A stretch of 64,000 nucleotides of DNA from Marsupella aquatica. Its lineage: Eukaryota > Plantae > Marchantiophyta. Positions 28,543 to 57,505 of this stretch are shown here, piece by piece (position 1 is the first letter of the stretch; every line of letters starts with the position of its first letter). The stretch is taken from assembly GCA_973895155.1 (NCBI GenBank), contig OZ316891.1, positions 23,931,899 to 23,995,898 of the forward strand. The letters are read 5' to 3'. A program made the position numbers and the translations under genes. The notes under the pieces are model-generated. The model was not told the origin of the DNA and did not search any database. It saw nothing but the letters and a program-made list of their open reading frames with translations.

Positions 28543-28706
28543 TGTTGTAACCATTTACTCTAGACCATGGTTAACCCCTAACCCTATCCTGAAGGGGTAA
28601 CATGGGTTAACACCAACCCCAACATGTAACCCTATGGTGACTATATAAGTCACACCCATAATGGAACACAACAGCGAGTTGCAAGTCTCTCCATTGTCAC
28701 ACAACA
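28543..28706 (+). repeat. copia 3' LTR
   Basis: Matches 23000-23163. Confidence 0.95.
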
Positions 28707-28898
28707 GATACAAGCAGAGTAGCAGATCTGCTGTGGTTGTACCACTCCATTATCAACTGCCACAATACAAAAACCTATGGGCAAGGGTGGAGCATCCAGA
28801 GTAATGGGCCGACTATACGTGTCTCTGTGTACAGGCAAAAACTCCCATTGCACAGCAGAACTGGCAGGGACCAACCTCATTCCACTCAGCTTCAGGCG

Positions 28899-29815: not shown

Positions 29816-29930
29816 TGTGATGCCTAGACAGGAATCACTCGGCCAGTTAAGTGGGTAAAGCAGGAAGGCACCCTAGGAACACCTTAGTATAGTGACAAAA
29901 CAAGGAAAATATAAACAATTAGGGGCAACC

Positions 29931-32740: not shown

Positions 32741-33490
32741 TTATAAATTCCTATGTAGACCTTCTATCGGCACATGACCCAGTAACCAGTTCTCTGCTTC
32801 TTCTATAAGCCTAAAAGACTTGTGTTTATTGCCACTAAAACCTGAGACTTCGCGCTCTGCTTCTTCCCAACATTCATAGATACCAGGATTCCGGCCTTTC
32901 CCCACTGCATACCACCGTTTCCTACTATGCAAGGAGGGATGATTGCATCTAAAATATAATACATCAAAGCTTGGATCAATCTGATGCTGGCCATGCCCTG
33001 AAACTTGAGCTGCCTGCCCATGCTCATACAGTAGATGTTGCTCTCTCACTATCGGTTGCTGAGCTGGAATTTGAGCTGGCTGGCTATGGTGCTCATATAC
33101 AGGATGCATCCATTGCTGCTCTCCATGCTCATCTTTTGGATTCTTAGCAGGATGAGGGCTGGAACTATGTCCTTCTGGTTGAGGACGAGCAACAGTAGTG
33201 AGATTCTCAACAGGCTGGGGGCTGAAATCAGGACCTTCTGGTTGAGGACGAGCAACAACAGTGAGATTACCAACAGACTGAGGGCTGAAATCAGGAACTT
33301 CTGGTTGAGGACGAGCAACAGCAATGAGACGCTCAAGCAGCTCATGCAAAAAGCGGAAAAACTCGCTCAGTAGTCCAAGGCAAGACCAAAACAGGCCGTC
33401 ACAAACTAAGGCCACAGCTGACCACAAAATTGCACCAAAAGCTTGCCTACAGGTGCTCCATGCATCCTCCAACTTTGCCTCTATTGCCAT
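32741..33490 (-). CDS. CACTA-2 accessory protein with a C-terminal RNase H1 hybrid-binding (Cauli_VI/viroplasmin) domain, about 249 aa
   Basis: WYAVGKGRNPGIYECWEEAEREVSGFSGNKHKSFRLIEEAENWL matches the HBD consensus YAV.KG..PG.Y..W.E....V.GF....HK.F....EA..W. The ATG at 33490 follows a GTAAGT..TTGCAG intron (33571-33492). The protein has 21-aa internal repeats. Confidence 0.85.
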   Translation of the reverse strand: MAIEAKLEDAWSTCRQAFGAILWSAVALVCDGLFWSCLGLLSEFFRFLHELLERLIAVARPQPEVPDFSPQSVGNLTVVARPQPEGPDFSPQPVENLTTVARPQPEGHSSSPHPAKNPKDEHGEQQWMHPVYEHHSQPAQIPAQQPIVREQHLLYEHGQAAQVSGHGQHQIDPSFDVLYFRCNHPSLHSRKRWYAVGKGRNPGIYECWEEAEREVSGFSGNKHKSFRLIEEAENWLLGHVPIEGLHRNL

Positions 33491-35862: not shown

Positions 35863-36930
35863 CTTAGCTTGGGTCTTTGCAACTCGAAGAACCCACTCAG
35901 AATCCACTCATAATCAGGTGCTTTGAGATGACAAGAATTAAAGCACTGCTTTATACCACTCTCATTGCAGTGGTGCGAGCCATGTTTTATAAAACCACTA
36001 AGAGGTCTGAGTGGTTTCACCAGTGGTACATGGTAGGGTCACCCACTAACTCTATTTCTCCAATTCCACAAACTCTTGGAGTGATGTTGCTAAAGGTGGT
36101 GGAAGGAGTTGCTCAACTTCTATGTGCCCCAAAACTTAGCACCTTTTGATTTCTTGTGTGATGGGGTGGGTGGTTTTGCTCAAACTGGGAGGCCATTGTG
36201 TTAGAGCTGTCCTTCAGGAGCAATGTGATGGAGCTAAGTTGGAGGAATGAGGAAGGCTACAACCAAAAATCATGAGCCTACCATTGGCACCCCATGTTCT
36301 AAAATTATAAATACAATGTGCCAGCCCTCTTAGCTTGGGTCTTTGCAACTTGAAGAACCCACTCAGAATCCACTCATAATCAGGTGCTTTGAGATGACAA
36401 GAATTAAAGCACTGCTTTATACCACTCTCATTGCAGTGGTGCGAGCCATGTTTTATAAAACCACTAAGAGGTCTGAGTGGTTTCACCAGTGGTACATGGT
36501 AGGGTCACCCACTAACTCTATTTCTCCAATTCCACAAACTCTTGGAGTGATGTTGCTAAAGGTGGTGGAAGGAGTTGCTCAACTTCTATGTGCCCCAAAA
36601 CTTAGCACCTTTTGATTTCTTGTGTGATGGGGTGGGTGGTTTTGCTCAAACTGGGAGGCCATTGTGTTAGAGCTGTCCTTCAGGAGCAATGTGATGGAGC
36701 TAAGTTGGAGGAATGAGGAAGGCTACAACCAAAAATCATGAGCCTACCATTGGCACCCCATGTTCTAAAATTATAAATACAATGTGCCAGCCCTCTTAGC
36801 TTGGGTCTTTGCAACTTGAAGAACCCACTCAGAATCCACTCATAATCAGGTGCTTTGAGATGACAAGAATTAAAGCACTGCTTATACCACTCTCATTGCA
36901 GTGGTGCGAGCCGTGTTTTATAAAACCACT
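35863..36930. repeat. 466-bp tandem repeat (about 2.3 copies) inside CACTA-2
   Basis: CTTAGCTTGGGTCTTTGCAAC recurs at about 35863, 36329 and 36795; ORFs 35877 and 36343 are identical. Confidence 0.95.
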
Positions 36931-38685
36931 GAATCACCCAAGTGGTTTGAGACTGGTGGGTGCTGAATGGTGTTTGACCGTAAATTTCAGAATCCCCAGG
37001 CCAGGCTAAAATTCAGTACCTAGTCAATACTAATTATTTTAATCTATCTGACCCTTTCTTAAGACCGGGGCACTTTACAAAAAGGGGTGGACGAAAAGAG
37101 AGGTAGCTTGCGTTCTAACATACTTGATCCACAGGTCAATTTGGACTATCGTCTGACCGGCCAGAAAGGTAGTGCATTTAATATTGTACCATCTTCACCC
37201 TATACTTTCCATTTTTGAATCTGGCTATAATATCCAACAAAAGAGTGTTAGCTTTGTCACACTTTTCTAGCTAAGATGTTGCCAGTAGTTTGGCCAAAAT
37301 GGGTATGGGTATGGTTAATTGACATCAAATTATTACATGATAGATGGCCCTTTTGACTTTGGAAGAAGCTTTGGAAATGAGTTATGTAAAACACTCAAAG
37401 GGTTAATTTTGATAGTGGAGTTTAGTTGTAGACTTTGTAGGGGACTACTTAAGGAGTAGGGGTTCACTTTCTAGTGAATAAATATCTTAGGATATAGAGG
37501 GAATTTATTATGAATTTGAGGTAAGAGTGAAGGACCTCCACTAATATTGTTGTCTTAGGGTAATGTCAATGGTAATTAAATGAGAAGTTGATTTATTGGG
37601 AGGGCGGGTCCCACTCTGCAGTAAGATCCCTACTCCCGCCCGGCTCCGCGCGGCACAGAGTCTTTACATTTGTTCGCATCATGTTGGTTTCGGTTTCTTG
37701 ACTCTTTGCCTTAGGCTCATTCTCGCATTCTTAGTTTGATCTGCAGTGCCCGTCGCAAGTCTCACCCTGAACCGCCTCACGTCTTGGCTTAATCGTTGGT
37801 GAACTCATTCTTCAAATGTTGGACGGATTTGCATGATAGAATCGAAGTTTGGAGTGGGACAGACAAGGTGATCATACCGCCCGCTTTGGAAGTTGTAAAC
37901 TCGGTGATTTCCAGGACCTCAGCAAGAAAGGAAATCGAGGTTGCCATCTATTTGAATTGTTGTGGTGCTGAAGTAGAGTCAGCAGACGAATCAGTGACTT
38001 GCAGCAAGACTGCAGGAGCAACAACTTATTCATTGCTCAGGTTTTTAGTCGCAACCCTGTTAACTTCACCGCCCTCGCAGTCGCAACCCTGTTAACTTCT
38101 GTTGTCGCGCCTGGTCAATGCGTGTCAAGTTTCTTTAACTTCTTGTTGTGGTCTATTCGCGTGTAAGTCTGTCATCCTGGACTCGAAGCAGAGTTAGATG
38201 GAGTAGTACTGCTTTGGACCATGGCTGATGGATGTCATTTCATGCTGTCTGTCCGTGACCTTGAAGGTGTGAGGGGTTTACGATGCAAGCTCCTTGGTTT
38301 GAAGACTTCAAGATTCTCCTCGACTCAGCAGGTATCAACGCCTTTGGTTTCTTTTTATTGCATGTGATGCCATGGATTTAAATTCTGTATCATCTCCTAG
38401 AAGTGGTTCAATCACTGCCAGTTACACGAGAAGGTTAGCATGAAGTGAGAATGTGACAATGAATATAATCGTGAGTACGTGCTACTCTCCATATACAGCA
38501 AAAATGATGAGAGGGAATGAAACACTATGTTCAAATTTGAGCTTGGCAATGTGCAGTCCCACTTACGTGATCAAATTGAAGCAAAAATTCAGTAGCTTCG
38601 TCGCGCTGATTCAACTTTGAGGTGTGTTGTACTGCATGTCATTGTGGTCCGGTAAGGTGAGAGTCTTTTAAGTTTATTGGCAAAG

Positions 38686-41600
38686 ATGAGTGCCAATCGT
38701 GTAGGCTTTGGACAGTCTCGGCTATTCAGAGACTTCCGAAGGAGTGATCTTCAGTTGCATATTAGGGATGACAAATTATGGCGTCGACAACTGGCTGCTT
38801 GTAGGTCTGCAAGTATAGGGAAGATAAAGTGCCCTTGCACCATTTGCAACTGTAGGGGTAACCGTGTGAGTGTTCACACAGTCAAGAAGCACCTGTTACT
38901 GTACTCCCGACATCCATCTCAGCGACATTGGTGGGGAGATGAATGTGACACATCAGATGAGGAGTGGAATGAACACTTATGCGAGGTCAATCCTCCATCA
39001 GAGGGTAGCAATATAGATACTGGAGCTATAGGAGGGTCTGTCATTGATGTAACCTGTGATATGGAAATTCCCCGGTTGTTGGAGGATTTGGCATTGCCAG
39101 TGGAAAACCATCCAAGTGATCCTGTAGATGAAAGTCCTTCGAGGGAAAATCCAGAGAGAAGTGGGGAAGAGATGTTTAATATGGATGAGCTCTTGGAGTC
39201 CACAACTTCCACACCTCAGGAGCAGACTAGTCAAGAGGAGTGTTGGGATCAAGAGTCAGAAGAAAGAATGATGAATGCCTTTACAGAGGCATGTGCGCCT
39301 CTATATGAGGGGTGCAATACTTCCCAGCTGTCCTTTGTATTGACCTTTCTGAACACCTGCCATAACAACGGGTTTACTAACTCAGGTGTTGATGAGCTTC
39401 TTTCCTTGATGGCAAAACACACTATGCCATCAAAGCATTTGCTTCCTAAGAATCTGTACGCATGTAAGAAGCTCATTGGTCATCTTGGATTAGATTATGT
39501 CAAAATCCATGCTTGTGAGGATGGGTGTGTTTTGTTCAGAAAGGATTTATTAGAGTGCGATCACTGTCCAACCTGCAAAAAACCTAGGTACAAGCAGGTT
39601 GGGCAGTCAAAGCAGGCAGTCAAAGTTCTCCGTCACTTTCCCCTCATACCAAGACTGAGACGCATGTATAGATGTAAAGCCATTTCGGAGCTCATGACCT
39701 GGCATGCAGACAATAAGAGCAAGGATGGAAAGGTCCGTCACGTAGCAGATTCAAGGGCTTGGGCAGAAATTGAAGCTAATATAGATGATACTTTTGAGAG
39801 TGAGCCACGGAATGTTCATCTTGGATTAGCCTTGGATGGTGTAAACCCGTTTGGTGAGAACAATCTAAAGCATTCCACATGGCCCGTAATGTTATTAAAT
39901 TACAATTTACCTCCCTGGTTGTCTACTAAGAAGTTTTTTATTATGCTGTCTTTACTGATTCCTGGACCTGAATCTGTAACTGATCGTAACATAGATATCT
40001 ACATGGCCCCACTAATAGAAGAGCTTTCAGAGCTCTGGAAAGGAGTCAAGTGCTTTGATGCACTAGATAGGCCGGGTAAACAAAAGTGGTTTACACTGAG
40101 GGCCATTCTATTATGGACAGTGAATGACTATCCAGCTTTGGGCCTCATTTCTGGTCAAGTGACCAAAGGATACCATGGTTGTGTAGTGTGTGGACCCAAT
40201 GTCACTTGTAGAAGGTCCCAGTCTCTATCAAAAAATGTGTTCCCTGGAAGCCGTAGATGGCTGGAGGCCAATCACAAGTATCGTACTCCTGACTATGCTG
40301 CAAAGTTTGATGGAAAGATAGAGTCACGAGGCCCTCCCCCCAGGATGACATGCGAGCTAAAGCTGGCTTATGCTGCTGAAGTTGAAGAGTTTCTGAAAAA
40401 AGAAGGGGCCAAGCAAGGAAGCAAGCACTGCCCATCAAAGCTCCATGGAGTCAAGAGGAAACAGGGTCTTGCCGTGCTGCCATATTGGACTGTGAGTTAT
40501 CACTTTACCTTTTCTTATCTCTCTTATTTAAACTAGTTATCTACAAGACTCTTTCGTGTGGAAGTTTGAATTGAACAGCTATTCATCAGTTTTGCTCGAG
40601 CACATTCTTGGTCTTTGTGAGGGAACAGGCCCACAGTGTTTAATTACAGTGTGTAATGTGCTAAGTCGCATAGATGTTTGGCAATCTCTTAGCTGGCAGG
40701 CAGTCTGGCTCTTGGATTGATTGTGGGGGCTGCGAGGACAGGCATCTGTAGAATTGGGTCTTTGCCTAGTCGGCTCTTCAGTTAGTTCTCCAAGGGTCTC
40801 TTACCCCTGCTTTGATGACCTGGTACTTTTTGGGTTTTTAGTATTTGTTTTTGTGTAGGCATGTGCAAATGAATGAATCAAACGATTAGAATATATTGTT
40901 TTGTTTTAAGATTGTAGTATGCGTAAATTAATGTTTGAACTAGCAAGATATGATTAATAATGCTTTGTAGTAGTTCTCGATGCTACCTACAACCGTTTGA
41001 AGGGCTGCCTGCAAAACTTTAGAATCTAAATTAAAATCTAATTCATTCTGATAAGCAGTAAGGGCCTGTCGTATGATTCCTCCTTTCCTGGTCATCATAG
41101 TGCCCTTTCTATTTCTTGTGGTGCCGTCCAAGGCCAGGAACCACGATGTAGAGTCGCTTATCTTACGGGTCATGTTGCCTCAATCTGCTATCGCTACCTG
41201 TCCACTTCACTTCCTTGGAAAGACTAAGATAACTTTAAAAACCCATAGAGTTTGCTCAAAACCCTACAATTTTGTTACTAACAGAACTGTTTCTTCATTA
41301 GTATTCTAAATTGTATTCTAAATTAGTCGACTCTGGCCACTGCAATTGGGACGGGAAAATTTTGGGAAGAGCCCACTACCAATCGTTGTTTTTTATTATG
41401 GCAGGGGAGCCACAATGGCCAGAGTCAGTTTATTTTTCTTTGTATCCGTCGCCTATGCATTTCGAAGGTAGATGAATCTATTTGGCCACAAGAAATGACT
41501 GGTCAAGACTTTGCTCTCATGTTTATAACTTGTTACTCATGTTCTATTATATCTGGCGCGCAGAAACTTCTGATCAATCATGTCCTTGATCCAATGCACA

Positions 41601-43521
41601 CGGAGAAAAACATTGCGCAATCTTATCCACACAACTTCTGGGAAGAAGGACACTGCTGCTGTCCGGAATGATATGCAAGCTGAAGGTGTTCATGAGCAAT
41701 TGTGGATGAAGCCTCATCCAAACCAGAAAAAAGATCACTTTGTGAAACCCAAGGCACCATATGTCATGAGCAAATCAGAGCTCACACAATTTCTGGGAAC
41801 CTTGAAGTGTCTGAAAGTTCCCACAGACTTTGGCAGCTCATTAGCTAAGTGTGTGCGGCCTAGCAATAAGCTGGCAGGTATGAAATCTCACGATTATCAT
41901 TGCCTAATGCAGCAGATCCTTCCATTGGCATTGAGGAATTTGATGGACAAGGGACCCCGATTGGCCATTGTGAGTGTGTGCAGAGTTTGGCGTAAGATTT
42001 GCTGTAAAGTTTGGGACCCTACAACAAAGGATGCGTTGATGAAAGATGTAGCACAAACACTCTGTGCTTTGGAAATGCATTTCCCTTCGTCCTTTTTTGA
42101 TGTTATGACTCATCTCATGGTGCATATAGTGGAAGAGTTGGACATTTGTGGGCCTGTATCACAAAGATGGATGTATCCAGTTGAGCGATACCTCAAGAAT
42201 CTGAAGGGTTTTGTACGGAACAAGGCACGACCAGAGGCATCAATGGCAGAAGGATACATTCTCGAAGAGGCTTTAGGATTTGTGACAGAGTATATGGTAG
42301 ACTGCCAATCTACAAGGAGGCGTGTTTGGGATGCTGAAGAGGAGGAAGGAGTTAAAGGGGTGGTGTTGGAAGGGGCCTCATGCAAAGTCACTCTGACTGT
42401 GGTAGATCGAGATGCTGCTCATACATACTACCTACAGAATAATTTGTTGGTAACACCATGGTTGAGGTAAATTGTTACTTGCGCAACTATTATTTATGAC
42501 ACACTTTGTAACTTGCTGATAATTATTCAGATATTGTAATTAGTGGTTGATATTGTACGTTTTTGGATTGGTTTGCAGGCTCTATGAGAATGCAGAGGAA
42601 GAGAGAAGAAGACAGAGGGAAGCTTTTGTCCAACAAAATAACCAGACACGGCCTCCACACAGGCGTAGAGCAGCAACTTATCCTCAAGAATTGGAGGGAA
42701 TTCCCTTTGGGGTTTGGTTTAGGAATGAGATTTCCGAAGCTAACCTTGATGATGATGAAAACAAGTTGTTGTTGACGGCTATTTCCTTTCCCCCAAGCCA
42801 GCATGGTTTGACGTATACTTCAATGAAGGCTTATGGAAATCATTACAGGGTAATGCGCTGTAAAGGAAGGGATGGTAGTTGGCGTGAGCTATCCCATCTT
42901 AGGGACACAGATTGTCAAGGGTACGCTACATTTGACAGTGGGTTGGCCACCACTTTCCACGAGCAGAGAAGGGATCAGTCAGGAGTTGCTTTGGCTAAGC
43001 AAACCTACGTTGGGGTTCTCACCCAGATTCTTAAACTTGACTATGGACCACTATTGCGTTTAGAACCAGCCATTATCCTCAAGGCAAAATGGGTCCGGTC
43101 AAAGTGGGGACCAGACAATACTGGTCCATCTATGAAACATGATGAAACTGGTCTCTGGCTGGCCAACTTTAACATGCCTTATCCTGCAGCCGAGAAGTTA
43201 GACTATGTCTTGCCTGGTCAAGTTGAGCAAGTTTTCTTCTATCCTAACGAGGCTAGAACCTCATGGAGGCATGTCCTTCATAAGGAGGGAAGGTCTCGTA
43301 GAGTTGTTGAGGGTATCTATGATGTTGAATACAATGATCTTGTAGACCATCACGAGGTAGTTGAAGCGGAGCTTGTTGCAGCTGCTAACCGAGCTGTGCC
43401 ATTGGAGGAAGGAGAGAGCTTAGTCGCTCAGCAAACAGTTGCAAGGGTGACAGATGAATCAGTTGAAGAGATAATACAGGATGATGTTTGGGAAGATGAG
43501 GAAGATTCTGAGGAAGAGTAA
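38686..43521 (+). pseudogene. CACTA-2 TnpD transposase, 3 exons (about 38686-40491, 41564-42466, 42579-43521), one frameshift near 41618
   Basis: CPCTIC; HACEDGC; HVADSRAW; LALDGVNPFG; WTVNDYPALG; DPMHTEKN; GMKSHDYH; RWMYPVERYLKNLKGFVRNKARPEASMAEGY; QVEQVFFYP. Intron positions match CACTA-1. Confidence 0.95.
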
Positions 43522-43888
43522 CCGTGTGGCTATGTTGGTAGTGTGTGGATGCAGAACTCAAGTGATTCGGTCTTGGATTCGGCTGATGAGTCCCCAGAAG
43601 AGTCAAATGCTGAACTCACGGCCTATGAGTTGGAGAGATTGAGGAACATAAAAGCAAACAACGCCTTCATTGCAGCTGTGATTGGAAAATCTGCGGCAGA
43701 TTTGAACAGGTCTTGAATATATAGTCCCTCCCAACTTTGGTAGTCCACCTTATGTCAATCTTTATATGATTAACATTAGAGTAGAATTTGAATGCGTCCA
43801 GTGGCCTGGGAATTGCTATTGGCATTGTTAAATAATGTGGCCTTTGAAAATTTGCATGAATGACATTAATTAACATTAGTTTGGGTTG

Positions 43889-46800
43889 ATGAAAGGCAGT
43901 TCAGAAGGTGTGGGAAGAAGCAAAACAAAACGTGTTTATAGAAAGAAACCAGCGCAATTGCAGGTACCTTCTCTACCAACAAGGAAGAGTGCAAGGCAGC
44001 AAGCGATGAACATACCAACTATGGCAGACAACGGCTCAGATATTGAGGGCAGTGAGCGGTCAGAAGGTACACCTTACAGTGACTCTGAGAATGAGGGAGG
44101 CGCCGACTGGGGGAATTGTGACGACGAGATAACCATTGGGGACAAACAACGCGCAGGGGTACGTGTCTAATTAATTTTTCATTTTTTTGCTGTGCTGTGA
44201 AGGACACCAATTATGGTGCTATATCTTACTAATATATGAAATATGTCCGCAACTTATAAGAATATTGAAGATATTTAGTAAATGTACTGATTGTTGACTG
44301 TATATTGTTTCAGGCTGTCTCACACACCTCTGCTAAGTATTATAAAGATCCCATCACGGGAGTTGTCAGCTTGCGTAAGTTTCCACCTATACTAGCTTCT
44401 TTACATTAGCTATGTATGAATTTGAATATGACACAGCCTATGATTGTGATTGAATGTAAAATATGATGGGATGACCATGGCTGTTAATTACTTGTCAATG
44501 TACGTTGCAAGGCTTAATGCCAAGTTCAAGTCAGGGTTCAAGTATATTGGTGGCAAATTCTAAGTCTGAACTAAGATGTAAATCTTTGATATTGTAGTGA
44601 CCCCTATCCCTCAGGGAAGTGCTATGATGGCCAGTGCAAGTGGACCGTCCCAACAGTCAATTATGCGGCAGATGTCTCGAGCTGCAAAGAAACATTGGGT
44701 GGATCACACAGCTGAGCGAAGTAAAATGGGCATGAAGAAAGCAAGTATTCAGGTATCATGCCAACTTTAATTCAAACTCTTCTAGCAGATCAACATAGGA
44801 TCAAAATAGGATGCTTGCCAATTTTTAAATAGAGGTTGGAAACAGCCCCGACCTTTATCCTACTGACAGCATCGGTTAGTTTGAATCAATCACAATCGAC
44901 AATGATGTCTCGTGTGCAGATTTGGAATGACGATATTGATGCAAGTGACCAGTTCCGGGGACGTTGGGCAGACGACCTTCGTGCAGCTTGTGTTGGCAGA
45001 CTCGACCCTTCCGTGCGTAACATTGCTAAGCAAGACAAGGACATTATTATCCATTTGTATGATGTGATGGCTACTAATTGGCAGTATGTAGGGGGGACTT
45101 TGTCTGAGAAGAAGTTCAGGTCCCACTTGTCAAAAATAATGAAGGCTCAACGTGCAAAACTTCACAAGCATTTTCAAGCGATTGGGAAGCGCTTGGACAA
45201 GAAGCCTCCTGAAAATGTCAAGCCTGAGCAATGGAAAACACTTTGTGAGTGGTGGTTGTCCCCAGAAGGACTAACCAACATTCAGAAAATGACTAGAGCG
45301 AGAGCAGAAGTGAAGAATCCATCTAAAGTTGGACGAGGTGGCCATCGTGGGAGGGAGGCAATTTATGTGAGTGTGCTAACCCTTATGACATGATCATCTT
45401 TCAGTTTGTGCCATACATTCTCTGAGTGTGCTGATAAATGTTTGATTGCATTATTGTGCTGATAGTTGTTCCTGCCTTTTTCAGAAGAGGCAGAGAGGTC
45501 ATAGCCCAGGTCTATCAGACCTTCGACCTAATCCTTTTGATGACAAAGCAAATGGTTTGGGTTGGAGGTCAGATGTAAGCCCATCCTTGGCAAGTACTAA
45601 GTCCATCCTTGGTACACCTGCTCACCAGCTAGGGAGGAACTCAATCGTGAGTTTCTTTCTCTTCCTTTCCATATTGTAAGTACACCTGTCTCGGGTAATA
45701 TTTTAAGAGGACACAAAGTGGCTGTATATGGCTAATTTTTTTACTCACTGTGGTTTTCCAGACACCTGTATCCAACCTTGTAGTTGAGCGAAATGATGAA
45801 GTGATTTGTGAGAAAATAACCAGTTCTATCAATACTACTTTAGCTGCTGGGTTGGCACTGGTGGCTAAGACAATTGCAGAGAGCTTGGGAAATTACCAGC
45901 AACATATGAGTGTTTTGCATCAGAAGGAGACATCTCATGTAGGAGGGGTAGGTATCAATATTGAAGCTTCCCAAGAGGGGGGTGGTGGACCTGGAGCACT
46001 TGGTACGTCAAGCCTACCCACTTCCACAATTAAGGCTGCATCGGGCACTTCAGCACCAAAGAGTTCTGCAATGAAGTTGAATTTTGTGGATCTGTCCAAA
46101 GAGGGTATGTCTGTCTAATTTGTACTCTAAGCTAGGTCATGACCATTTGCTCTGGGTGATCGAAAATTAAGAGCTTAATTTTGTAAAATCATTGTAATGC
46201 AAATGATTTGTAAAAGCATTTCGATCATCTGAAAAATTGAATAATATATGTCCATGTCGGTGAGGAAGGTGCGGAGCAGAAAGACCTGATGGACAATGCG
46301 GAGTATAGTCACTCTGTGACTGTAAAGCAGGAGGTCTTAGATGATCCCACAAAGGTCCTTATCTCCAGTTCACCTCAACTAACTCCTAAGACAGGCAAGG
46401 GCCGAAAACCTAAAGGAAAGGTAAGGTTTGTGTGCTGCACTCAACTATCTCATAGTATAGATGCAAACTTTGTGACAAGGTGCTTAGCGCAGGGGCTCAG
46501 GAATTGTGTACATTCAAAGTTTTCTCAGGCCTGTGTTCTTACAAATTAGCTCTATGTCTTGTACGTGGATGGTGGATGTTCGAGTGGAATATGCACAGTA
46601 TGTAGAATTTTTTTCAGTCCAATATATATGCACACCTGACTCTATGCTCTCAGTCTAAGTTTGTCTAATTTTTCATTTGATCAGATGCCAAAGGTGGGAA
46701 TCATGCAGGCTCTTGAAGAGGGCAATGAAACAATCTCAGAACACCCAACCCCTTCAAGACCTCTAAGTACGGATGTTCTGAAGTCAGCGTCTTCACCAAC

Positions 46801-47287
46801 TGTGTTGAAGGTGACAATCTTCATAGATTTCTCCTTTTCTAAATTAATTACTATCATTTTGCATCTGTTCACTATCCTGCATTATGCATGATTCACTTAG
46901 CAGTGATTACATCCCTTGAAATGGCGCGCATCAGTATTGTTGCAAGCCAAGGGTTCATTGGCACCGCAGATTAAAAATATGGTCTCTCATTAAATTAGCC
47001 GTAATATATTGATTTACTGCTGGCAGTTCAAGATTGGGGACGTGGTGAAATTGAAGTCCCCAGTGGACTCTCGGGTTGTTGCTCTTGCAACAGTGCAGGG
47101 AGTCTGGGGGCAAGATTTTTACAATGGCAATGAAATTCCACCAGGACATTTGATCGTGATTGCAAATGAGGTGTTTGAACAGGATGCACCTCTACTTGAG
47201 AAAGAGCATCCAAACTCTCAGGTCAAATTTCTGAAGGATGTGGGCGACAGACATTTCTTGTGGTACCAGAAGTTGATGAGGAAGTAG
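43889..47287 (+). CDS. CACTA-2 TnpA-like multi-exon gene (exon limits approximate)
   Basis: Exon 44836..45393 (QRAKLHKHF..PPENVKPEQWKTLCEWWLS..VGRGG) and terminal exon VVALATVQG..GHLIVIANEVFEQDAPL; multiple GT-AG introns. Confidence 0.8.
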
Positions 47288-48237
47288 CAAGGAGTTGTTT
47301 TTTGATAGAATGTAGTGACTTGAGCTCTTTGGTTCAAGCTCGAGTAGTTTTGATGCACAAGCTGAGTTGGCCAATAGACTTGTTTTGTGATTAGTTCATC
47401 CAGGAAATACTTTACTGTGATTCTGAACAGTCGATCACCTGTACATTGGAGGTGAAATGAAGTCTACAGTCTCTATGCAGAATTTTATATTCATTCAATG
47501 GCTTTTTGTGTATATTTGCAATGTATATATCCTCTTGCAGTTGATTTCTAAGACATGTCTTTCTAGCTAGACAATTTGTCAGGATGATTGGAAATAGGAC
47601 CAATTGGGAGAATTGGTCCAATTATGAAATGACACAAAGGACTAACTAAATAACTTCCATGAAGTCATAAATGACTGAGCAGAAAAGACTCAAATATTGG
47701 TAATATAAGACATCAACAAAATCACTCCGATAGTAGTCATTATAAACATGTCCTAAATAACTACAATTATCTCCACGTGTACCCTACTAGGAATTAAGCT
47801 ATCAAAGTGTCACCTGTTGGCTGCTGGGATGATATAAAGGAGACACGTGTCCACTTGTAATTTGGTTTGTGTGGCTCAGACCTTCCACGTGTCTAAATGC
47901 TATTTGATGGCTTTAGACACATGTCGTTTCCTTATTTGATGAGTCATAACACAATTCAACTCTGATTTTAAGTTATTTAAGACCATCAGTTCTTTTTAAC
48001 GAAACACAATTCAACTAAGATTTTGAGTTATTTAAGACCGTCAGTCTCCCAATGGACGGTGTCATAAACAACCTGCAATTTGCAGTTGTTGATAAAAACA
48101 ACTCTATGTCCAAAAGGACTACTATACCAAAGCGACTTGCCTTTGTGAACTCAAATGAATGAGTTGTAAATTGTCCCAAACCACTCATAAGCTAGTCATT
48201 TTTTCAGTAATAAAAACATCATTTCCTTCTAGTGGAA

Positions 48238-49773
48238 GAGGCCGCCCTGGCTAAGGAAAAGGATTTACCAGGAGGAGATTGGCCGGAGGACATCAGGCGG
48301 CTAGCCGAAAAAGGAAGCAAACCTCTAGCCACGATTGAAGAGATCCGCAGGACGGCGTGGGAGCAGAGGCCACGATGGGCGATGCCGATCACTTCTACTT
48401 ACTCCACCTACGCTAAGAATAGAGCCATGGAGTATGGTGAGATGTGTGGGGAACTTGCGCTCGGCATCTTTGGAGAGGAGTTGGAGGTAGGACCCTTTTT
48501 TCACAGGGAGCAGTTGGAGAAGCACCAATTAGAAGAAGCGGTGGCTTTAGAGAGAAGCAAGAAGGACGAGGTCATTCGGCGGCTTAGGAGGATGGAAGCC
48601 GAGATTGAAAATCTAAGGGCGGCCAAGAAAGCCCAAGATGAACTGCGGATTAAACGACATGAGCTGAACATCATGCAGGGGCAGTTGGACGCCGTGCAGG
48701 CTGATAATCAGAATATCAAGGATAAACTGACTCAGACGCAGGAAGAGTTGGCCGACACGATCAAAGAGAGGGAGAAGTGGAAGCAAGAGCTGAAGAATAC
48801 AGAGGAGGCCCACATAACAGCCAACAGCCGGGCCATGGCGGAGACCCAAAGAAAGGAATGGGCGTTGAAAGGGGAGCTCGAGAAAATCCACGGAGCCCTT
48901 GAGCAGAAGGAGGTCGAGTTAGGGAAATCCTATCAAGGGATTATGGCGCTGCAGCAGGAGCTTGCGTCCCTGACGGCCAGCTTCAAGGCCGACCTAAGGG
49001 AGAAGGACGAGATGCTCGAACAGACTTACGCCAAGATGAACCAGATGGAGTCTGTCATCATTGCAGAGCTCGACAAGGAGCTAAGAGCAACCCAGGAGGA
49101 GAGGGCTACCTTGAAGAAGGAATTGGAGGAAGCCCACAGGGAGCAGGAGGAGGCCAAAAACGAGCTGGAGGGGGCACGTAAGGACCTGGATGAAACCCAA
49201 GAGGAGTTGGAGGAAATCACGAGGAAGATGGAGAACCTACAGCGGCGGGCCGACAACCAAACAGAGCGGCTGAAGAAACAAGCCGCAGTATTTAAATGCT
49301 TAGCTGCAGCAGGTCCATCTCCCGTTGGGACAAACCAGTTACCAGGGGTGGTAATTGCCGAAGGACAAGCCGCGTCAACTGCACCAGTGCCGGAAGTAAG
49401 TGGGAAGGGGAAGGGACCAGCTGCCGAGCCACCAACGAAGAAGAAGCGGAAACCTCCAGGGTCAAGGAGTAATACGACTTCACAGGCCGTGGTGATCAAG
49501 GAGGTAGACCCAGCACCGACCCCAGACAGGGTCACGGCTAAGGATCCAACTACCCTAGGGGAAGGGGAGGCCGAAGCCGTGGGAGTGGCTGAGGCCGAAG
49601 CCGTGGGTATTGCCGAGGCCGGTGTCGAGGCTGAAGCCGAAGGTGGACCCAGTCAGGCCGATGGAGAGTTGACTCGGTCAAGGGCAGGTAATCTGTCAGT
49701 AGGCGGGCCAACGGCAGTGGCTGAGGAGGAAGTGTTGGGGGCGTCCATTGAGGATCCACCACCGGTGTCGTGA
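48238..49773 (+). CDS. Unit B ORF, C-terminal part: long coiled coil plus low-complexity tail
   Basis: It joins in frame to 31981 after removing CACTA-2 and one TSD (KQEE-EAALAKEK). It has about 260 aa of E/K/L/Q-rich heptads and a KKKRK NLS-like motif. Confidence 0.75.
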   Translation, partial: EAALAKEKDLPGGDWPEDIRRLAEKGSKPLATIEEIRRTAWEQRPRWAMPITSTYSTYAKNRAMEYGEMCGELALGIFGEELEVGPFFHREQLEKHQLEEAVALERSKKDEVIRRLRRMEAEIENLRAAKKAQDELRIKRHELNIMQGQLDAVQADNQNIKDKLTQTQEELADTIKEREKWKQELKNTEEAHITANSRAMAETQRKEWALKGELEKIHGALEQKEVELGKSYQGIMALQQELASLTASFKADLREKDEMLEQTYAKMNQMESVIIAELDKELRATQEERATLKKELEEAHREQEEAKNELEGARKDLDETQEELEEITRKMENLQRRADNQTERLKKQAAVFKCLAAAGPSPVGTNQLPGVVIAEGQAASTAPVPEVSGKGKGPAAEPPTKKKRKPPGSRSNTTSQAVVIKEVDPAPTPDRVTAKDPTTLGEGEAEAVGVAEAEAVGIAEAGVEAEAEGGPSQADGELTRSRAGNLSVGGPTAVAEEEVLGASIEDPPPVS

Positions 49774-50394
49774 CGGTGCAAGGGCGCCGTTCCTTTTAGG
49801 GAGGGCGGACGTGGAGGGAGGAGGCGTGAGTGGGCAGGGCGGGCGCGGATCTCCACGTTTAGGATTAGGATCAGAACCAGGAGCGGCCCTGACACTTAGC
49901 TTAGTGGGATTGCGGTTCCACTGGTAAGAGCAACACTTGTGCTCCTGCCTTGCTGTACATAGGTAGATTCGAGCAAGTAGATTACTGTCAGGTAGATTAG
50001 GCTTACGATGCAAAGAATGGCGGATCCACTACCAGGATAAGTACCTGGGCAGCAGGGAGCTCAGGGCCTCTTCTTTAGCAAGTTTTTAGTTTGCACCAGC
50101 CGGGCTGGGATCAAGTAGTACGAGAAGCTCTCGGTTAGTCATACAGTGACCCTTGTGTATATTCATGTTTCCTCATGCCTAAGAGCTGAATAGAGTTGGT
50201 CTCACGGCTTAGTTCGCAGAACTTGTGTATGAGATGTACTGTTTGTATGGCAAGTGCATGGTATGACTCAGTCAGAATGAGTCATTTTGCTATTTGTGTG
50301 TCGCATTAACTTGTGTGAAGAGTGCCCACATCAACAGAAGGAAGGAAAGTAAGCAGGGGAGTGATAGTTGGATGTGTCGAGCTGAGAGAGGTCT

Positions 50395-51311
50395 TAGCCT
50401 CTCAGCTCTGCCTTCAAGGTCAGCTCCCAATCTGCTGCGCGTCCTTGGCATTACTGTAACAAATACAAGAAGCAATCATTTATCCAACCCAAACACTCAA
50501 TGAAATTCATGCAACCATTTAAGATTCAACTATTTCATACAATCAGATAGTTTAGTCCATTTGAGTTTAGTCCATTAGACACTGTAGTCCACTTCATACT
50601 ATAATCAAACAATTTAGTCCACTTCATGAATACTTAATACTATGTCGTGTTTTCTACACAATTGAAGGCTTATGATCTATTTGAAATAATGAGGTGGCAC
50701 ATCAGAACCCTCTGGAATGACATGGCAATTGCAGTACACCATACGCCATGGACCAATATCCCAAGTTTCTCTACCCTTAACTCCTCTCTTCAGGTGTTTG
50801 TCTGCCTCTGGTCCTTCATCTCTGCACCACGCACGAGGGCACCTACGACACTGGATAAATTCCCAGATGCCATCCCGATACTCCTTGCACACATCACAAT
50901 AATGCCTTGGGCATATCAGAGCAGCGGGATGTGCATCTGAGTTCTCTACATAAGTTATCAGAGGCAACTCGTTCGCCCTCAATATAGTCCGCAGACAACC
51001 CACATGGTAAAAGGAATAGCAATCGTCCTGTGCACACTGAATCACAAGGGGCTCATCTGTAGTGGGTTTCACGGTTCGGCCAAGTAACCCACAAGCAAAG
51101 CAACAAGCTCGGTTCTGCTGACAGAGGTCATAGAGCCACTCCTTGTCCCAATCATGCCCTCTAGAAATGGCAATGCGTGTGCACTCAGGCCCATGGCCAT
51201 CAGGCTCCTCAGCATCCTGCCCATCAACTAAGTAATGAAAATGTCGACTGCAAGGCCCATCGCAGAACAAAACAGTACCTCCCTCATCACATTCAAAACA
51301 ACAGGGGGGAT
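50395..51311. repeat. 917-bp direct duplication, copy 2
   Basis: See 28899-29815. Confidence 0.95.
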
Positions 51312-51375
51312 CCATGCGAAGGTGCTCCTTATGGGCAAACTTGGGATCCAACCAGGCAGCAGCAGCCCGTGCCAT
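50677..51375 (-). CDS. CACTA-1 accessory protein: stand-alone EDM2/NSD-type tandem PHD zinc-finger cassette, about 232 aa
   Basis: CFECDEGGTVLFCDGPCSRHFH..C..(C/Y)DLC..CFACG..IQCAQDDCYSFYHVGC..CPRHYCDVC..IQCRRCPRAWC..WD....RMVYCNCHVI..P follows the EDM2 PHD region as recalled. The ATG at 51375 follows a GTGAGT..TTCAG intron (51480-51377). Confidence 0.85.
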   Translation of the reverse strand: MARAAAAWLDPKFAHKEHLRMDPPCCFECDEGGTVLFCDGPCSRHFHYLVDGQDAEEPDGHGPECTRIAISRGHDWDKEWLYDLCQQNRACCFACGLLGRTVKPTTDEPLVIQCAQDDCYSFYHVGCLRTILRANELPLITYVENSDAHPAALICPRHYCDVCKEYRDGIWEFIQCRRCPRAWCRDEGPEADKHLKRGVKGRETWDIGPWRMVYCNCHVIPEGSDVPPHYFK

Positions 51376-54300
51376 GCTGAAGAAAATAAAATCTACACAA
51401 TTGCCTTCAACATCACTCCAAAGTCCATTCAAAAACCAAGAGACAAACACAAAGAAGGTAAGTGAAGTGTACTTACTCACAGAGCAGTTGAGCCAGCCCC
51501 AGTCGCACCTCCAACCAGCACAGACCTGTGGTTACCACACTCATCAGTCTCCCCAATATTTATTCCCCAATTGCCCCAATATTTATTCTCAGTCTAGCCA
51601 AACCAGCCTGCAGGCCTACACCAGCTATTAAGTTTTCTCTAATGTCCCAGCTGACAAAACAGCTCAGCCTCTGTTGCACTTAAACTAGAACAGAACATAC
51701 ATCTGAAAACATTCTGATCATCACCTCCAAACCTTCCGCTTTAACAAACAAATCACAGCCGTCCGTACATAGCTCTCAATCAATAAACATACAAACCCTG
51801 AGAGACACACCCTATCAAATAACTTTAGGAGAAGTAAATATACTCTACAACTGAATTCTAGGTTTGACATGATTGTATGAATTTTAATGGGTATCCTGTT
51901 CAGGAGATCATTAGTTGAAGTGTTCTAAGCAGCTCCAATTCTCAAATACGCACCTAAGGCCTTAGCAGAATTAATAATTACAGGCTTGTTGCAAAAACTA
52001 TAAGGCCAGACAGGAATACCTTAAGGGTGAAAGGTTTGCAGACAATCTGTAGAGAGTAGATTGCCTACAATCAAATTGAGACGCCCATAAACCCTGCACA
52101 ACCACCACACAACAATCGCACATTGCTGACAGGAAATCACATGAAAGAATGCAGTATAACCAGAAGGGAAGAAGTATAATTCTTCTAAAATTAACGGACT
52201 TTGAAGAGCATAGCAGACCTCAGACATGATTTGCCATTTGGTTCAGACAAAAATTAATGAGACAAGAGAAACAACAAGGTACCCGAACCTTGCAACGGGA
52301 AGGGGAAAAAGGGACACAATGGAGGAAAGAGGAGAAGATGGGCTTTCAAAAGAGAAAACACGACCGAGCAGGGTGAGACAAGCAAGACTTCGTCAAAGGA
52401 CAGAACGCTGGAGTATGAAATCCATGATTACTCTGTTTTTAGATATATTATATTTTCAGAAGAATAAGGAAGCAAGGCCCAGTGGATCCACATTGTCTTT
52501 AAAGGTACTAGCGGGCAATATATAAACATCCAATCCCAAGCCAACAGATATAACATTTCTTGGCCAGCACAGACAGGAAGCTCGAGAGGAGCACAAAGCA
52601 AGCCGCGCAGGGTGAGAGAGAGGCATGAACATGAAAACCTATACAGACCGGAATGAAAGCTCCCTTCAAGCTGGGACTCTGCTCTTGGTTGATCGATGTT
52701 GCTGATACTAGCTAGTGCACTTTACTGAACTGAAAAAAACATTGACAGCATCGGGCAGTGTAAGTGAAAATGAAAGCATTAAGAAGCAACAGTAGTCTCA
52801 GGGATTGAGGTGGGGTTTTAGGTAGCTTTGGCGCAGAAAAAAGTAAGGAGGGAATGCTAGGCATTTCCTAACTAAGACCAGTAGCCCAATCAAGGTGAGC
52901 AGAGCATTAAGTAAAATACAAACGGGGATGCAAAGCAAATGGCAAAGGCATGACAAGAGAAAAGGGAATGGCCAAGGCATGACCACACGCAGCTCAAAGC
53001 CAAAGCAGAAATTCCAGAGCAAAGTCAAGAAGGACCAAAAATGATGTAGCTATACACACCACATCACCCCAGATCACCCCAGATGCCTTCTACTTTTCCA
53101 GTTCCATTGCTGCAGACCCTAATGTCGAGCCCTTGCGCCTGCACACTTGATACCCCCGATCAATTTCATACCATCACAAACAAGTACCGTATGCAATGTT
53201 CAAGAAGATGTTGCATCTGCAACCCAGGTCGAGACCATTTTCAGGGAGCGCAGACGACAGCGCATGTTGATTTGACAGATAAGGGAGCAACATTGAAAGA
53301 AAAGCAAGCTGCATATTGAAGACTTAACATTGAAAGCTACCGTGGGAATACTCACAAATCAGCTGCCAGCGGCCTCCAGTGCAATGCCTCCCACCACCTC
53401 CACGTTCTCCTTCAAAGCCACGCTAAGGTCTACGCTACACACTACACTCACAGGAGAGAGATCGATCAAGGCAAAAATGCAAATCCGCAACCTTAGAGTG
53501 TACTGTATGGAGAAAAAGAGCAATAGGGGAAGAAAAGCAAGGGAAGCAGACACAAAAGCATTAAGCAAAAGACAAACGGGGATGCCAAGCAGAAAGCATG
53601 ATAGGAGAGAAGCAAATGGCTGAGGCATGACAAGACACAGCTCAAAGCCAAAACAAAGAAGGCATACATACCTTCAACCGGAAACTCTCTTTAAGCTCAA
53701 ACAGAAGCTGCAGCAACTTGCAGCTTCCCCTAGCGCTTGATCACACCAACTCACAGCAATCTGTAGTTGCTCGCAGCAGTTTGAGGCAAGTCCCTAAACT
53801 CCCAGCAGCTTGCAGCTCCCACCAACACCTCTCAGCGGCTCCCAGCGAGTCTAACAGCGCACCAGGAAATCTCCTGAGGAACTTCCTTCACAGTCCTAAG
53901 GTGCAACTCGCGACTCTATTCTTGCTGCTTCGATCACAGAAGGTCCTTTCAGGTGAGCGCCCCTCCTTCCTGGTCGCCGTTGCACCGATTGCTGGCAGCT
54001 AGAGTTCCCTTCCACAATGACGGGAGTGTGCGTGTGCTTGAGGTGATCAGCGATGGTGGGCGGTACATAAGGGCAGCAGTAGGGAGTTCCCCCAAGAGTT
54101 ACGAGCCTTTCAGAAATCACGATGGCGGCAGCAAGTAGGAACATAGGAGCTCGGTCCTAGGGCAGCTTCCCACTGCCCACAATAACAAAGTGCGACCCTC
54201 CTCCTCCACCCTAAACCGTAGTCCCAAGTTGCAGCTGAACTCCACAGCATCCGATTAGAAGGCCAAACTAAACTCCCAAGTTGATGAGTGAGTAAGTGCA

Positions 54301-55099
54301 CTCTGCGTCGCGACGATAAACTCTTCGACAAACTGCGCAAAGGAGCAGGAAAACCTCAACATTCGATAAGTTCTTTGTGAAACAGGGAATCCAATGAGCC
54401 GGGTGCTTCCGGCAGTTCCCGCCAGTGACAAAGGCAAGGGCCGGGGGATTGAGGGGATGACATGTGGACGATGGAGATTGCATCCAACTGCGACTATGAA
54501 CGGGAAACTTCAACGGTCCAAGTGAAGGGGTTACTAGGGCCTTATTCCCTCCATAAAGGACTTAATTAAGTATGTGATGTCATTAGGGAGTGGAAAAGGA
54601 CTTTGCACCACCCATAACTATTTTTCTCCCCCAAAAGTGCAAAAATTACTAACACACCCTCTAGAGAAAAACAATTCCAAGAAGCCCCTTTGGGCAATCC
54701 ATCAGCCAAAAAGCATCTCAAATAATTGAAATGTGTGGCTAAGTTAACAGGAGGAGTTAATTGGCAGCCTAAATGATATTTGGCGGTACCTTAACGGAGT
54801 TCTGGGCGTAATTTAGCAAAAGACATAATCTGCAATTTGGGCCCCTTATTTCTTAACTGAAATGATGGAAACTTGGTACGGAGCAGTACAATAAATCATC
54901 TAAATGAGAACTTACTCCAGAATATCTAACATAGATAGTCAAGTGTGTTTGGTATACTAAGGGACCAAAAGCTATCATGACTCTTTTGCCCTCATGACAT
55001 ATATGCAATGGTATGACCCCCATTAAGTGAAGTCTGCCCATATAATGACTCCAACATGGAAACAAAGTAACATAGACTAGATTAGGATCCAGGGTTGAA

Positions 55100-56742
55100 G
55101 TGTACCCTATCCCGCACCATGTGGAGTGGGTAGCATCCCTAATGGCGGGCTACAATCATAAATATTGCCAATCACCCCCAGGAGGCCCCAAAGAGTCATA
55201 TTGTCCATGGCATGCATGACTGCAATAGTGACATCATGAATGACTTATTTTTGTGTCATTTGAATGAATGACATCTCCCGGCACTCCCTAAATGACAAAA
55301 ACCTTTAGTCACGCATAGTAATGACTCAAGATCCCTTACAAATGACCAAATGGGAGTGGTTTGCACTCCTTTGGACAAATGACTCCAAAGTCATACAACT
55401 TGGGAGTGTTTTGCCCAAAGTTGGGTGATGCCCTTCCATGATGCAAAATGTGTGCTTTAAAAAGTGTTGTGGAGGCCAAGTGGCATAACTAGTGGCTTAG
55501 GGTGTACAAGTACCCCATCCCGCACCATGTGGAGTGGGTAGCATCCCTAATGGCCGGCTACGATCATGTATATTAAAAATAAGCCCCCAAAGGCCCCAAG
55601 GAGTCATATTGTCCATGGCAAGCTTGACTGCCGCATTGACATCATCAATGACTCATATTTGTGTCATTTGCTTAAATGACACCGCTCGGCACTCCACAAA
55701 TGACAAAAACCTTCAGTCACATGCACAAATGACTCAAGATCCCTTGCAAATGACCAAATTAGAATGATTTGCACCCCTTTGGGCAAATGACTCCAAAGTC
55801 ATACAACTTGGGAGTGTTTTGCCCAACGTTGGGTGATGCCCTTCCATGATGCAAAATGTGTGCTTTAAAAAGTGTTGTGGAGGCCAAGTGGCATAACTAG
55901 TGGCTTAGGGTGTACAAGTACCCCATCCCGCACCATGTGGAGTGGGTAGCATCCCTAATGGCCAGCTACGATCATGTATATTGCAAATAAGCCCCCAAAG
56001 GCCCCAAGGAGTCATATTGTCCATGGCATGCTTGACTGCCGCATTGACATCATCAATGACTCATATTTGTGTCATTTGCTTAAATGACACCCCTCGGCAC
56101 TCCACAAATGACAAAAACCTTTAGTCAAGTGCACAAATGACTCAAGATCCCTTGCAAATGACCAAATTAGAATGATTTGCACCCCTTTGGGCAAATGACT
56201 CCAAAGTCATACAACTTTGGAGTGTTTTGCCCAAAGTTGGGCCATGCCCTTCCAAGGTGAAAAAGTTGGGTCATAAAAACTATTGCGAGGCCAAATTGAG
56301 ATAACTAGTGGCCCAGAGTTTAGGTGTACCCTACCCCACACCATGTGGAGTGGGTAGCATCCCTAATGTTGGGCTACAATCATGGATATAGCCAATCGAC
56401 CCCCGGAGGCCCCAAAGAGTCATATTGTCCATGGCATGCATGACTGCAACAGTGACATCATGAATGACCTATTTTTGTGTCATTTACATGAATGATGTCT
56501 CCCAGCACTTCCTAAATGACACAAACCCTTAGTCACGTGCACAAATGACTCTAGATCCCTTGCCAATGACTCACAATAGTGGTTTGCACCCCTTTGGGCA
56601 AATGACTCCAAAGTCATACAACTTGGGAGTGTTTTGCCCAAAGTTGGGTGATGCCCTTCCATGATGCAAAAGGTGTGTTTTAAAAAGTGTTGTGGAGGCC
56701 AAATGGCATAACCAGTGGCCCAGGTTTGTCAAGTACCCTATC

Positions 56743-56746
<4 letters not shown>
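55100..56746. repeat. ~408-bp tandem repeat (about 4 copies) near the CACTA-1 5' end
   Basis: GTACCC(C/T)ATCCCGCACCATGTGGAGTGGGTAGCATCCCTAATG recurs at about 55102, 55510, 55918 and 56326, with a partial copy at about 56733. The unit is rich in ATGAC/GTCAT. Confidence 0.95.

Positions 56747-56787
<41 letters not shown>
56747..56787. repeat. (TA)n microsatellite
   Basis: Directly visible; it terminates the 408-bp array. Confidence 0.95.
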
Positions 56788-56788
<1 letters not shown>

Positions 56789-57505
56789 TCCAACATGTGA
56801 AATGTGAATACAGCTTAAGGAATGTAAACAATTCAGGAGTCCTTGGCATATATAGGAAAGATGTAATAAATGGGTGCAAGTATATATAAATATACATACT
56901 TATTAGAGATTATCAAGCCTTTAAGTTGTACATCAATTTAATGATGAGACTCACAACAAAAGAAGGCTTGTTAGGTCTCTAAATGTATTTCAAATCTAAT
57001 ATGTGAGTGCCACTAGTCTTTATATATACTACCATACGTTTTGGATGACTAATCATACCCTAAATCCTAAAACATATACTAAACCATAAACCTCAAAATA
57101 GTCATATGTTGTTTATCATGTCATTTATCACTTTTGGTTTAAATGACTACTAACATTTTTAAACACTGATATTTGCATATTTGATTTATTAGTCATTAGT
57201 CACCGTCGTCTGAAATGACTTCCCATATGTGAAACACTGATATGACAGAGTTTTTGTTAATTGTGTCATTCACAAAGACTGTCCAAAATGACTGCAACTC
57301 ATGATTGCTGTCATTATAGCAGTCAAAGTCATTTGGCTCATTGGTTTAAATGACACTATTACAAGTATTAGTCATTTTTTGCACCCCGTCATTTTGGACA
57401 GTCATTTCAATGTCATTTATGTCATGTCATTTACATATTTTGTCATTTGAGCACATAAGTCATATGTGTCATAGTCATAAAAGGCCCCATTTTCTACTAG
57501 TGACA

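Follow-up and report, generated by a model that had tools for sequence, protein, structure and literature searches.

The part that RAG2 plays as a partner protein involves a PHD finger. RAG2 is described as a separate partner of a transposase (PMC4411706), PHD fingers are present in the Ginger (Ginger1-9) and Mutator transposases (PMC2836005) as well as in Chlamydomonas Gypsy-7a and other elements (10.1101/2022.06.16.496473; PMC9977147), and it has been suggested of other transposons that a PHD guides their insertion (10.1101/2022.06.16.496473). Autonomous DNA transposons are further reported to carry extra genes that act on chromatin, in several cases derived from the host, including VANC in VANDAL, TnpA in Spm, the Ulp1 of the MULE Kaonashi, SET in HarbingerS and MuDR, and TET/JBP in fungal DNA transposons (PMC13317346, PMC12730594, 10.64898/2026.08.24.746577). 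How plant DNA transposons choose their targets and survive silencing is an open question, and one case that may bear on it is a gene for three PHD fingers of the EDM2/NSD type, which lies within a nested CACTA transposon (CACTA-1) of the liverwort Marsupella aquatica. The window, that is, the whole stretch of DNA analyzed, comprises 64,000 nucleotides (assembly GCA_973895155.1, contig OZ316891.1, positions 23,931,899 to 23,995,898 of the forward strand), and all coordinates given below are positions in the window.

On the evidence presented here, it is likely that this gene belongs to the transposon and has been kept by selection. If so, a selected histone-reader gene from a host family of heterochromatin readers would represent a route beyond DNA binders (VANC, TnpA) and enzymes (Ulp1, SET, TET), and its open reading frame (ORF) of 232 aa would be a natural minimal form of the EDM2 cassette, small and easily testable. 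If the gene is instead a passenger, it would merely be a well-preserved old capture.

Comparison with described systems

EDM2, of the ASI1-AIPP1-EDM2 system, and the liverwort EDM2-like paralogs have the triple-PHD cassette in common with the CACTA ORF over its full length: HHalign returned 99.7% to Marchantia Mp1g03210 (P0004; score 188), 99.2% to a long Marchantia EDM2-like protein (P0023; 147), and 99.1% to an RFD-bearing EDM2-type protein (P0028; 142). EDM2 is laid out with an N-terminal RFD region and a C-terminal methyltransferase-like/ELP region (PMC7529245), and statements on its histone binding are also found in PMC9910501 and PMC3632883. The CACTA ORF, in contrast, is 30–36% identical to these proteins, carries neither the RFD nor any other EDM2 region, is uninterrupted in its coding sequence, has a re-wired third finger, and resides inside a transposon. 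It does not appear to be an EDM2 orthologue and would work, if at all, in the manner of the EDM2 reader module. With the PHD cassette of NSD1/2/3 it shares Pfam families, profile matches, and the best fold match, but it is without PWWP and SET, and the NSD proteins are much more distant from it than are the plant EDM2-likes.

The PHDs of other transposons described in the papers examined are single fingers fused to a transposase or polyprotein, whereas the CACTA-1 ORF is a separate gene with a three-finger EDM2/NSD cassette. Likewise, VANC, TnpA, Ulp1, SET, and TET/JBP are DNA binders or enzymes, whereas the CACTA-1 product has no catalytic domain and is predicted to be a pure reader; a Pfam scan revealed no homology to VANC or TnpA, and the main texts of PMC13317346 and 10.64898/2026.08.24.746577 make no mention of a PHD. 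Pack-CACTA elements resemble CACTA-1 in holding host-derived coding sequence within CACTA terminal inverted repeats (TIRs) and in a tandem duplication with intervening DNA. They are by definition non-autonomous and devoid of a transposase gene (PMC6379663), however, and CACTA-1, having TnpD, is not a Pack-CACTA by that definition; its cargo is a whole, highly diverged, and selectively conserved cassette rather than a recent fragment. Literature listings and abstracts, searched both on PHD genes in CACTA/EnSpm and on liverwort EDM2-likes, contained no report of a stand-alone EDM2-type PHD gene in CACTA.

Position and state of the PHD gene

CACTA-1 (13817..57502, minus strand; 43,686 bp) is a member of CACTA/EnSpm by its TIRs, its target-site duplication (TSD), its subterminal repeats, and its TnpD. 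The TIRs begin with CACTAG, 14 of the 16 terminal bases of the pair 13817/57502 are complementary, and the TSD ACA stands on either side; the only further TIR pair in the window that equals this score with a TSD is 31982/48234, which delimits a nested element, CACTA-2. The motif ATGAC occurs 36 and 58 times per kb in the two ends and twice per kb in the interior, so subterminal motif repeats are present, and TnpD matches PF02992 (E 3e-62).

The full-length PHD ORF (50677..51375, minus strand; 232 aa) is uninterrupted and stop-free within the TIR/TSD pair of CACTA-1 and runs on the strand of TnpD, whose ATG lies ~1.7 kb downstream once nested DNA is discounted, which upholds the placement given in the original prediction. 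CACTA-2 was ruled out as the carrier, since the ORF falls outside 31982-48234. A second PHD copy (29815-29181, minus strand), which the prediction had overlooked, is truncated at the 5′ end and starts at about codon 22. The prediction had further placed a 5′-UTR intron at 51480-51377; this 104-nt GT-AG stretch ends one base ahead of the ATG and is an intron candidate in the sequence, with a donor that scored 6 of 9 and an acceptor that a crude scan of 275 AGs did not rank among the best 15. Because the PHD frame stays open through it up to 51531, its status as a 5′-UTR intron is not established.

The TnpD of CACTA-1 contains four in-frame stops in the parts that align with CACTA-2, and for this reason, together with a substitution at a zinc-ligand position of the PHD ORF (C82Y), the copy of CACTA-1 in the window is probably dead or decaying. 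That the PHD frame of this copy has stayed open was not taken to show that it functions, given that four stops in ~1,200 TnpD codons predict fewer than one in 232.

The predicted protein

Within the 232-aa protein, Pfam identified PHD_NSD (PF22908; E 6.6e-9, 36.4 bits against a cut-off of 23.9), with weaker matches under their cut-offs to PHD-1st_NSD and PHDvar_NSD in fingers 1 and 3. The cassette fills the protein, and the Pfam scan found no further domain in it, in keeping with the predicted absence of the other EDM2 domains; PF12047, which is frequent in long homologues, was absent. An AlphaFold model built on a 79-row alignment (mean predicted local distance difference test score 81.6, predicted template modelling score 0.81) had the PHD-C5HCH tandems of NSD1/2/3 as its best structural matches (Foldseek probability 1.0), the best being the NSD2 PHDv-C5HCH (Z 7.5, root-mean-square deviation 2.8, 79 residues aligned). 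Profile matches to NSD2 and NSD3 had E values of 3e-21 to 1e-14, a single-sequence search of the PDB gave 0 matches, and no solved structure of the EDM2 cassette turned up in the structure searches.

As a reference, we took the 24 Cys/His columns that are invariant in 95% or more of 130 host-type rows. Of these, 21 are present in the window protein and 22 in the relatives P0001 and P0002, so that the ligand pattern noted in the original prediction stands in large part, with the exception of C82Y, H184C, and C187E. The first of these occurs only in the full-length copy; the truncated copy keeps C82 and carries C85Y, and both changes are C-to-T in CAG context, a kind of mutation that methylated DNA would be expected to undergo. 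The finger 1 ligands are complete in the relatives, and finger 2 has its full set. In finger 3, H184C and the loss of C187 are family-wide, and H194 might substitute for the lost ligand; it is one of six invariant Cys/His residues peculiar to the family (H15, H18, C25, H45, H149, and H194).

Finger 1 is the best conserved part of the protein and is closest, weakly, to the PHDs of NSD2 and CHD4 (E 0.01–0.8). It retains an acidic residue ahead of the first Cys, the GGxL strand, CDG, and a late Trp, and it has no Trp cage. An acidic/hydrophobic set together with GGxL, CDG, and a late Trp is typical of readers of the unmodified H3 N-terminus, and a cage Trp belongs to H3K4me3 readers. We consider it somewhat probable that the product is a histone reader that binds the H3 tail. 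Binding of H3K9me2 would not be implied, because the finger 1 features fit readers of unmodified H3 on general knowledge of PHD fingers, and because it would be an extrapolation over ~30% identity with an altered third finger.

Relatives and phylogeny

The close relatives are P0001 (247 aa, 69% identity, a cluster of 3), P0002 (226 aa, 57%), and the fragment P0003; all are stand-alone and sit on contigs of 1.2–3.2 kb. The search of the 50% library gave 167 hits, just two of them below E 1e-30, and identities to host proteins were read from the best 150. Among these, no named liverwort, moss, fern, or seed-plant protein exceeded ~40% identity, and the named long host proteins listed were at most 36% identical over the cassette. 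The next-best matches after the family were C-terminal cassettes of Marchantia, Riccia, and Calypogeia proteins (P0004, P0005, P0007-P0009, and P0014; 31–36%), followed by long EDM2-type proteins. Two metagenome scans for loci of the family yielded 29 and 223 pattern matches, none of them confirmed; a search for longer homologues returned 0 of 267 candidates, which is weak evidence, and a profile search produced no new family member (3 of 1,352 candidates). The prediction had held that the ORF is not a recent Pack-CACTA fragment, and the distance of the named long host proteins, set beside stand-alone relatives at 57–69% identity with 22 of 24 ligands, supports this.

In a careful tree of 24 rows, the family is monophyletic (100/100) on a long stem, and a branch supported at 98/100 puts it on the same side as the liverwort paralogs; across trees the stem measures 1.9–3.2 changes per site. 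Approximately unbiased (AU) tests, which are to be read with this long branch in mind, did not reject a union of the family with the long Marchantia/Riccia EDM2-likes (p 0.148) and narrowly rejected one with five RFD-type EDM2 rows (p 0.040). Trees of 135 and 41 rows were computed in quick mode only, with 21 of 155 proteins left out for short matches; in the larger of the two, the family had no settled position and lay close to long branches. The same triple-PHD cassette as in EDM2 is present (HHalign), as predicted, but the nearest host group would be the liverwort EDM2-like paralogs and not EDM2 itself, with the donor not settled. Five short PHD proteins (P0065, P0130, P0134, P0138, and P0146) join the family at 93/94, on long branches, and are regarded as a lead only. 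P0138 has the finger 3 His-to-Cys change in common with the CACTA PHD family, and P0130 carries near its start an ARTK motif, which we take to resemble the histone H3 tail.

Sequence conservation and contig depth

In all three pairings of the family, the ligand positions have changed less than the remainder of the protein (p 0.009, 4e-4, and 4e-5); P0001 and P0002, for example, are identical at 23 of 24 ligand positions and at 99 of 179 others (p 4e-5). When neutral change was simulated without indels, just 2 runs out of 1000 retained at least 22 ligands at 69% identity, and none of 1000 did so at 58%. Contigs from public sequencing runs of three studies (two species labels and a third with a small share), were aligned at 80% likeness; of the six ORF differences among the 40 listed out of 1,507, five are synonymous, where neutrality would give a share of 0.26 (p 0.005). 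When the two window copies are compared with each other, three of four differences change the protein and one is synonymous (Fisher p 0.12 against the five of six). A contig of run X5 matches 314 ORF bases without gaps at 90% identity; this run has a small share, yet long matching contigs.

The ratio of summed depth of the PHD ORF to that of the presumed TnpA exons was 0.45–0.59 in runs X3, X4, and X5 and 1.95 in X1. Summed PHD depth was 3–17 times that of the copia retrotransposon nested in CACTA-1 in three of the four runs and 0.07 times in X5, where other copia families inflate the copia bins. In X3 and X4 the ORF stands far above its own 5′ region in summed depth and its per-contig mean is 4–9 times that of a unique contig; in X2 the per-contig mean is without excess (0.7). 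The neighboring ORF2, which copia interrupts in the window, is present in copia-free form in four of four runs, with at least 31 bases on both sides in two of the four, and an X5 contig at 92% identity runs through ORF2 without copia. A low-depth contig of X4 starts at 51348, and from this and the 31-base words the other copies would appear to diverge at the start codon. Taken together, these data are a consistent hint, and no count, that much of the family regularly carries the block of PHD ORF and ORF2. On the points that could have overturned the original prediction, the analysis found a PHD match, no near-identical host protein in the library searched, relatives with conserved ligands, and hints of many copies linked to the element, and none of the three went against it.

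Possible functions and competing explanations

The explanation that we tentatively place first is that the PHD gene is an old accessory gene owned by the CACTA family, whose product reads H3 tails and docks TnpA/TnpD on marked nucleosomes. Under this explanation, a CACTA element would have captured a liverwort-type EDM2-like gene once, long ago; the gene would have been reduced to its reader cassette with loss of the other domains, and would have diverged rapidly on the stem before being conserved in the active elements of the family. The promoter of the element would drive its expression, with the PHD ORF as first coding exon of a long transcript spliced at the candidate intron described above, and its product is predicted to bind H3 tails and, by analogy, to contact TnpA/TnpD and dock them on marked nucleosomes. 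Because the protein consists of a reader only, it would require either a partner or occupancy, and docking is ranked first because of the analogy with PHD-guided targeting elsewhere and with RAG2. Several points weigh against this explanation. Docking would be favored over an effect on silencing by analogy alone. The nested CACTA-2 does without a PHD gene, which is therefore dispensable for CACTA elements; P0001-P0003 could be host genes. The full-length window copy is without ligand C82, finger 3 is without a canonical ligand throughout the family, and the fold match, at Z 7.5, is modest and falls short of the tool's threshold of 8. The conservation tests are inflated, as the libraries hold open frames only and hidden Markov model searches favor conserved cysteines, the six ORF differences come from 40 of 1,507 differences, chosen by support, and contig depth, as the tool warns, is no copy number. 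Both CACTA elements lie in repeat DNA, which amounts to one site each and proves no targeting.

The evidence for ownership by the transposon applies equally to a reader that acts on silencing, which might cover H3K9-methylated nucleosomes of the element and rival or imitate the EDM2-like reader of the host, so that the full long transcript is made. Chromatin marked by H3K9me2 is bound by EDM2, and EDM2 also suppresses polyadenylation at proximal sites (PMC7529245, PMC7890070), and transcribed, TnpA-activated Spm copies are reported to retain H3K9 methylation (10.64898/2026.08.24.746577), a situation in which a reader could help; but the ORF is without the RFD and all other EDM2 regions, and a decoy with no sequence specificity would benefit every transposon. 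This explanation, which we rank second, is considered doubtful. It is unlikely that the ORF is a passenger, meaning a captured host gene or Pack-type fragment that decays in the transposon copies while P0001-P0003 belong to the host and owe their conservation to a use in the plant. Plants do have short stand-alone EDM2-like PHD genes of their own (a 280-aa Marchantia protein, P0008; P0104/P0151 in grasses), each window copy has lost a ligand through C-to-T change in CAG context, and the 917-bp duplication around foreign DNA resembles the tandem-insertion route to Pack-CACTA (PMC6379663); against these stand the absence, among the best 150 hits, of any named liverwort, moss, fern, or seed-plant protein of more than ~40% identity, the presence of TnpD and TnpA-like exons in the element, and the depth and synonymous excess, which indicate an amplified, constrained family.

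Rather improbable, in our view, is a transposon-owned protein whose fingers are no longer histone readers and serve as a zinc scaffold for contacts with proteins (ORF2 or TnpA, for instance) or nucleic acids. Partners other than histones are bound by some PHDs of the NSD type, and the very long stem branch, the family-wide H184C and loss of C187, and the six new invariant Cys/His residues are in keeping with such a change, but it is finger 1, the one likely to bind histone, with its weak proximity to NSD2 and CHD4, that is best conserved. We regard it as very improbable that the PHD sequence is part of a high-copy repeat (segment X), or the product of an assembly error, and only by accident lies inside the CACTA ends. 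The duplication boundary at 50395 does adjoin segment X, and a rise in depth begins near the other boundary; however, the duplicated 917 bp have no TG..CA ends and no TSD and cut the ORF at codon 21, while the relatives have that N-terminal part, depth in run X4 is alike on both sides of 28899 (2,493 and 2,255), segment X is at least 10 times deeper than the PHD sequence, and five differences between the duplicated copies speak against collapse.

Returning to the explanation by docking, a wider form of it, which we offer as speculation, is that in an early-land-plant CACTA lineage the captured EDM2-like cassette became a third subunit of its own, which reads histones with a re-wired zinc site and partners the transposase much as RAG2 does, and that P0065, P0130, P0134, P0138, and P0146 are signs of a broader group of chromatin readers encoded by transposons, whose role would be to direct insertion or to protect the element from silencing.

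Other features of CACTA-1 and the window

By length accounting, CACTA-1 without nested DNA measures ~16.5 kb, and its order is then TIR, 408-bp tandem array, ~3.6 kb of presumed promoter and leader, PHD ORF, 226-bp spacer, 148-codon ORF2, ~1 kb, TnpD, TnpA-like exons, and TIR. On the minus strand, the 5′ end (55089..57502) holds four 408-bp tandem repeats (55102-56744), an ATGAC-rich subterminal region, and the TIR, and the adjoining 5′ region (51481..55088), presumably promoter and spliced leader, contains no minus-strand ORF of at least 100 aa starting with ATG. The TnpD exons (18061..21782) include Transpos_assoc, Transposase_21, DUF4218-like, and DUF4216-like regions. The presumed TnpA exons (14904..17900), named from their position, are 35% like a downstream ORF of CACTA-2 and gave no Pfam match at E < 0.1, TnpA families included. 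The 3′ end (13817..14500) comprises a 12-bp tandem array, an ATGAC-rich subterminal region, and the TIR.

ORF2 is a second unexplained accessory gene beside the PHD ORF. It is a Cys-rich frame of unassigned family; its first 83 codons (28707..28955, minus strand) had no match in a Pfam scan, and the last 65 codons and stop (22797..22994, minus strand) lie beyond the copia insertion (23000..28706, plus strand), which has identical 164-bp long terminal repeats (LTRs) and the TSD GATAC. The 917-bp direct duplication consists of copy 1 (50395..51311, minus strand), which spans most of the PHD ORF, the spacer, and the start of ORF2 and ends abruptly at 50395, and copy 2 (28899..29815, minus strand), which holds the truncated PHD ORF and continues into ORF2 and TnpD; the copies differ at five positions. 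They were ruled out as LTRs for want of TG..CA ends and a TSD. The duplication encloses 20.6 kb of foreign DNA, yet a single TSD surrounds all of CACTA-1, which may be explained either by a hybrid from tandem insertion whose parts then transposed together or by an insertion of the repair type.

This foreign DNA, segment X (29816..50394, plus strand), is a high-copy repeat of very high depth in all four runs, and its left end is 85% like 58912-59514. It is itself split by CACTA-2 (31982..48234, plus strand; TSD GAA), which lies on the opposite strand to CACTA-1 and interrupts a 916-codon frame without clear Pfam family (30767-31981 and 48238-49773, plus strand). Opposite to the TnpD of CACTA-2, a 249-aa ORF (32741-33490, minus strand) encodes a lone RNase H1 N-terminal domain, which binds RNA:DNA hybrids (PF01693, E 3e-15), and is possibly another transposon-borne reader, in this case of R-loops. 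Long-unit tandem arrays stand near the 5′ ends of both CACTA elements, the 408-bp unit four times in CACTA-1 and a 466-bp unit 2.3 times in CACTA-2 (35862-36930). At the left of the window, positions 1-9607 form a further repeat-bounded element (1-290 are 92% like 9318-9607), in which there are arrays of 27-bp units and several ORFs that Pfam does not match, and a BAHD-type transferase fragment at 10024-10737 (minus strand; PF02458, E 5.5e-9) is the sole host-like enzyme sequence seen in the window.

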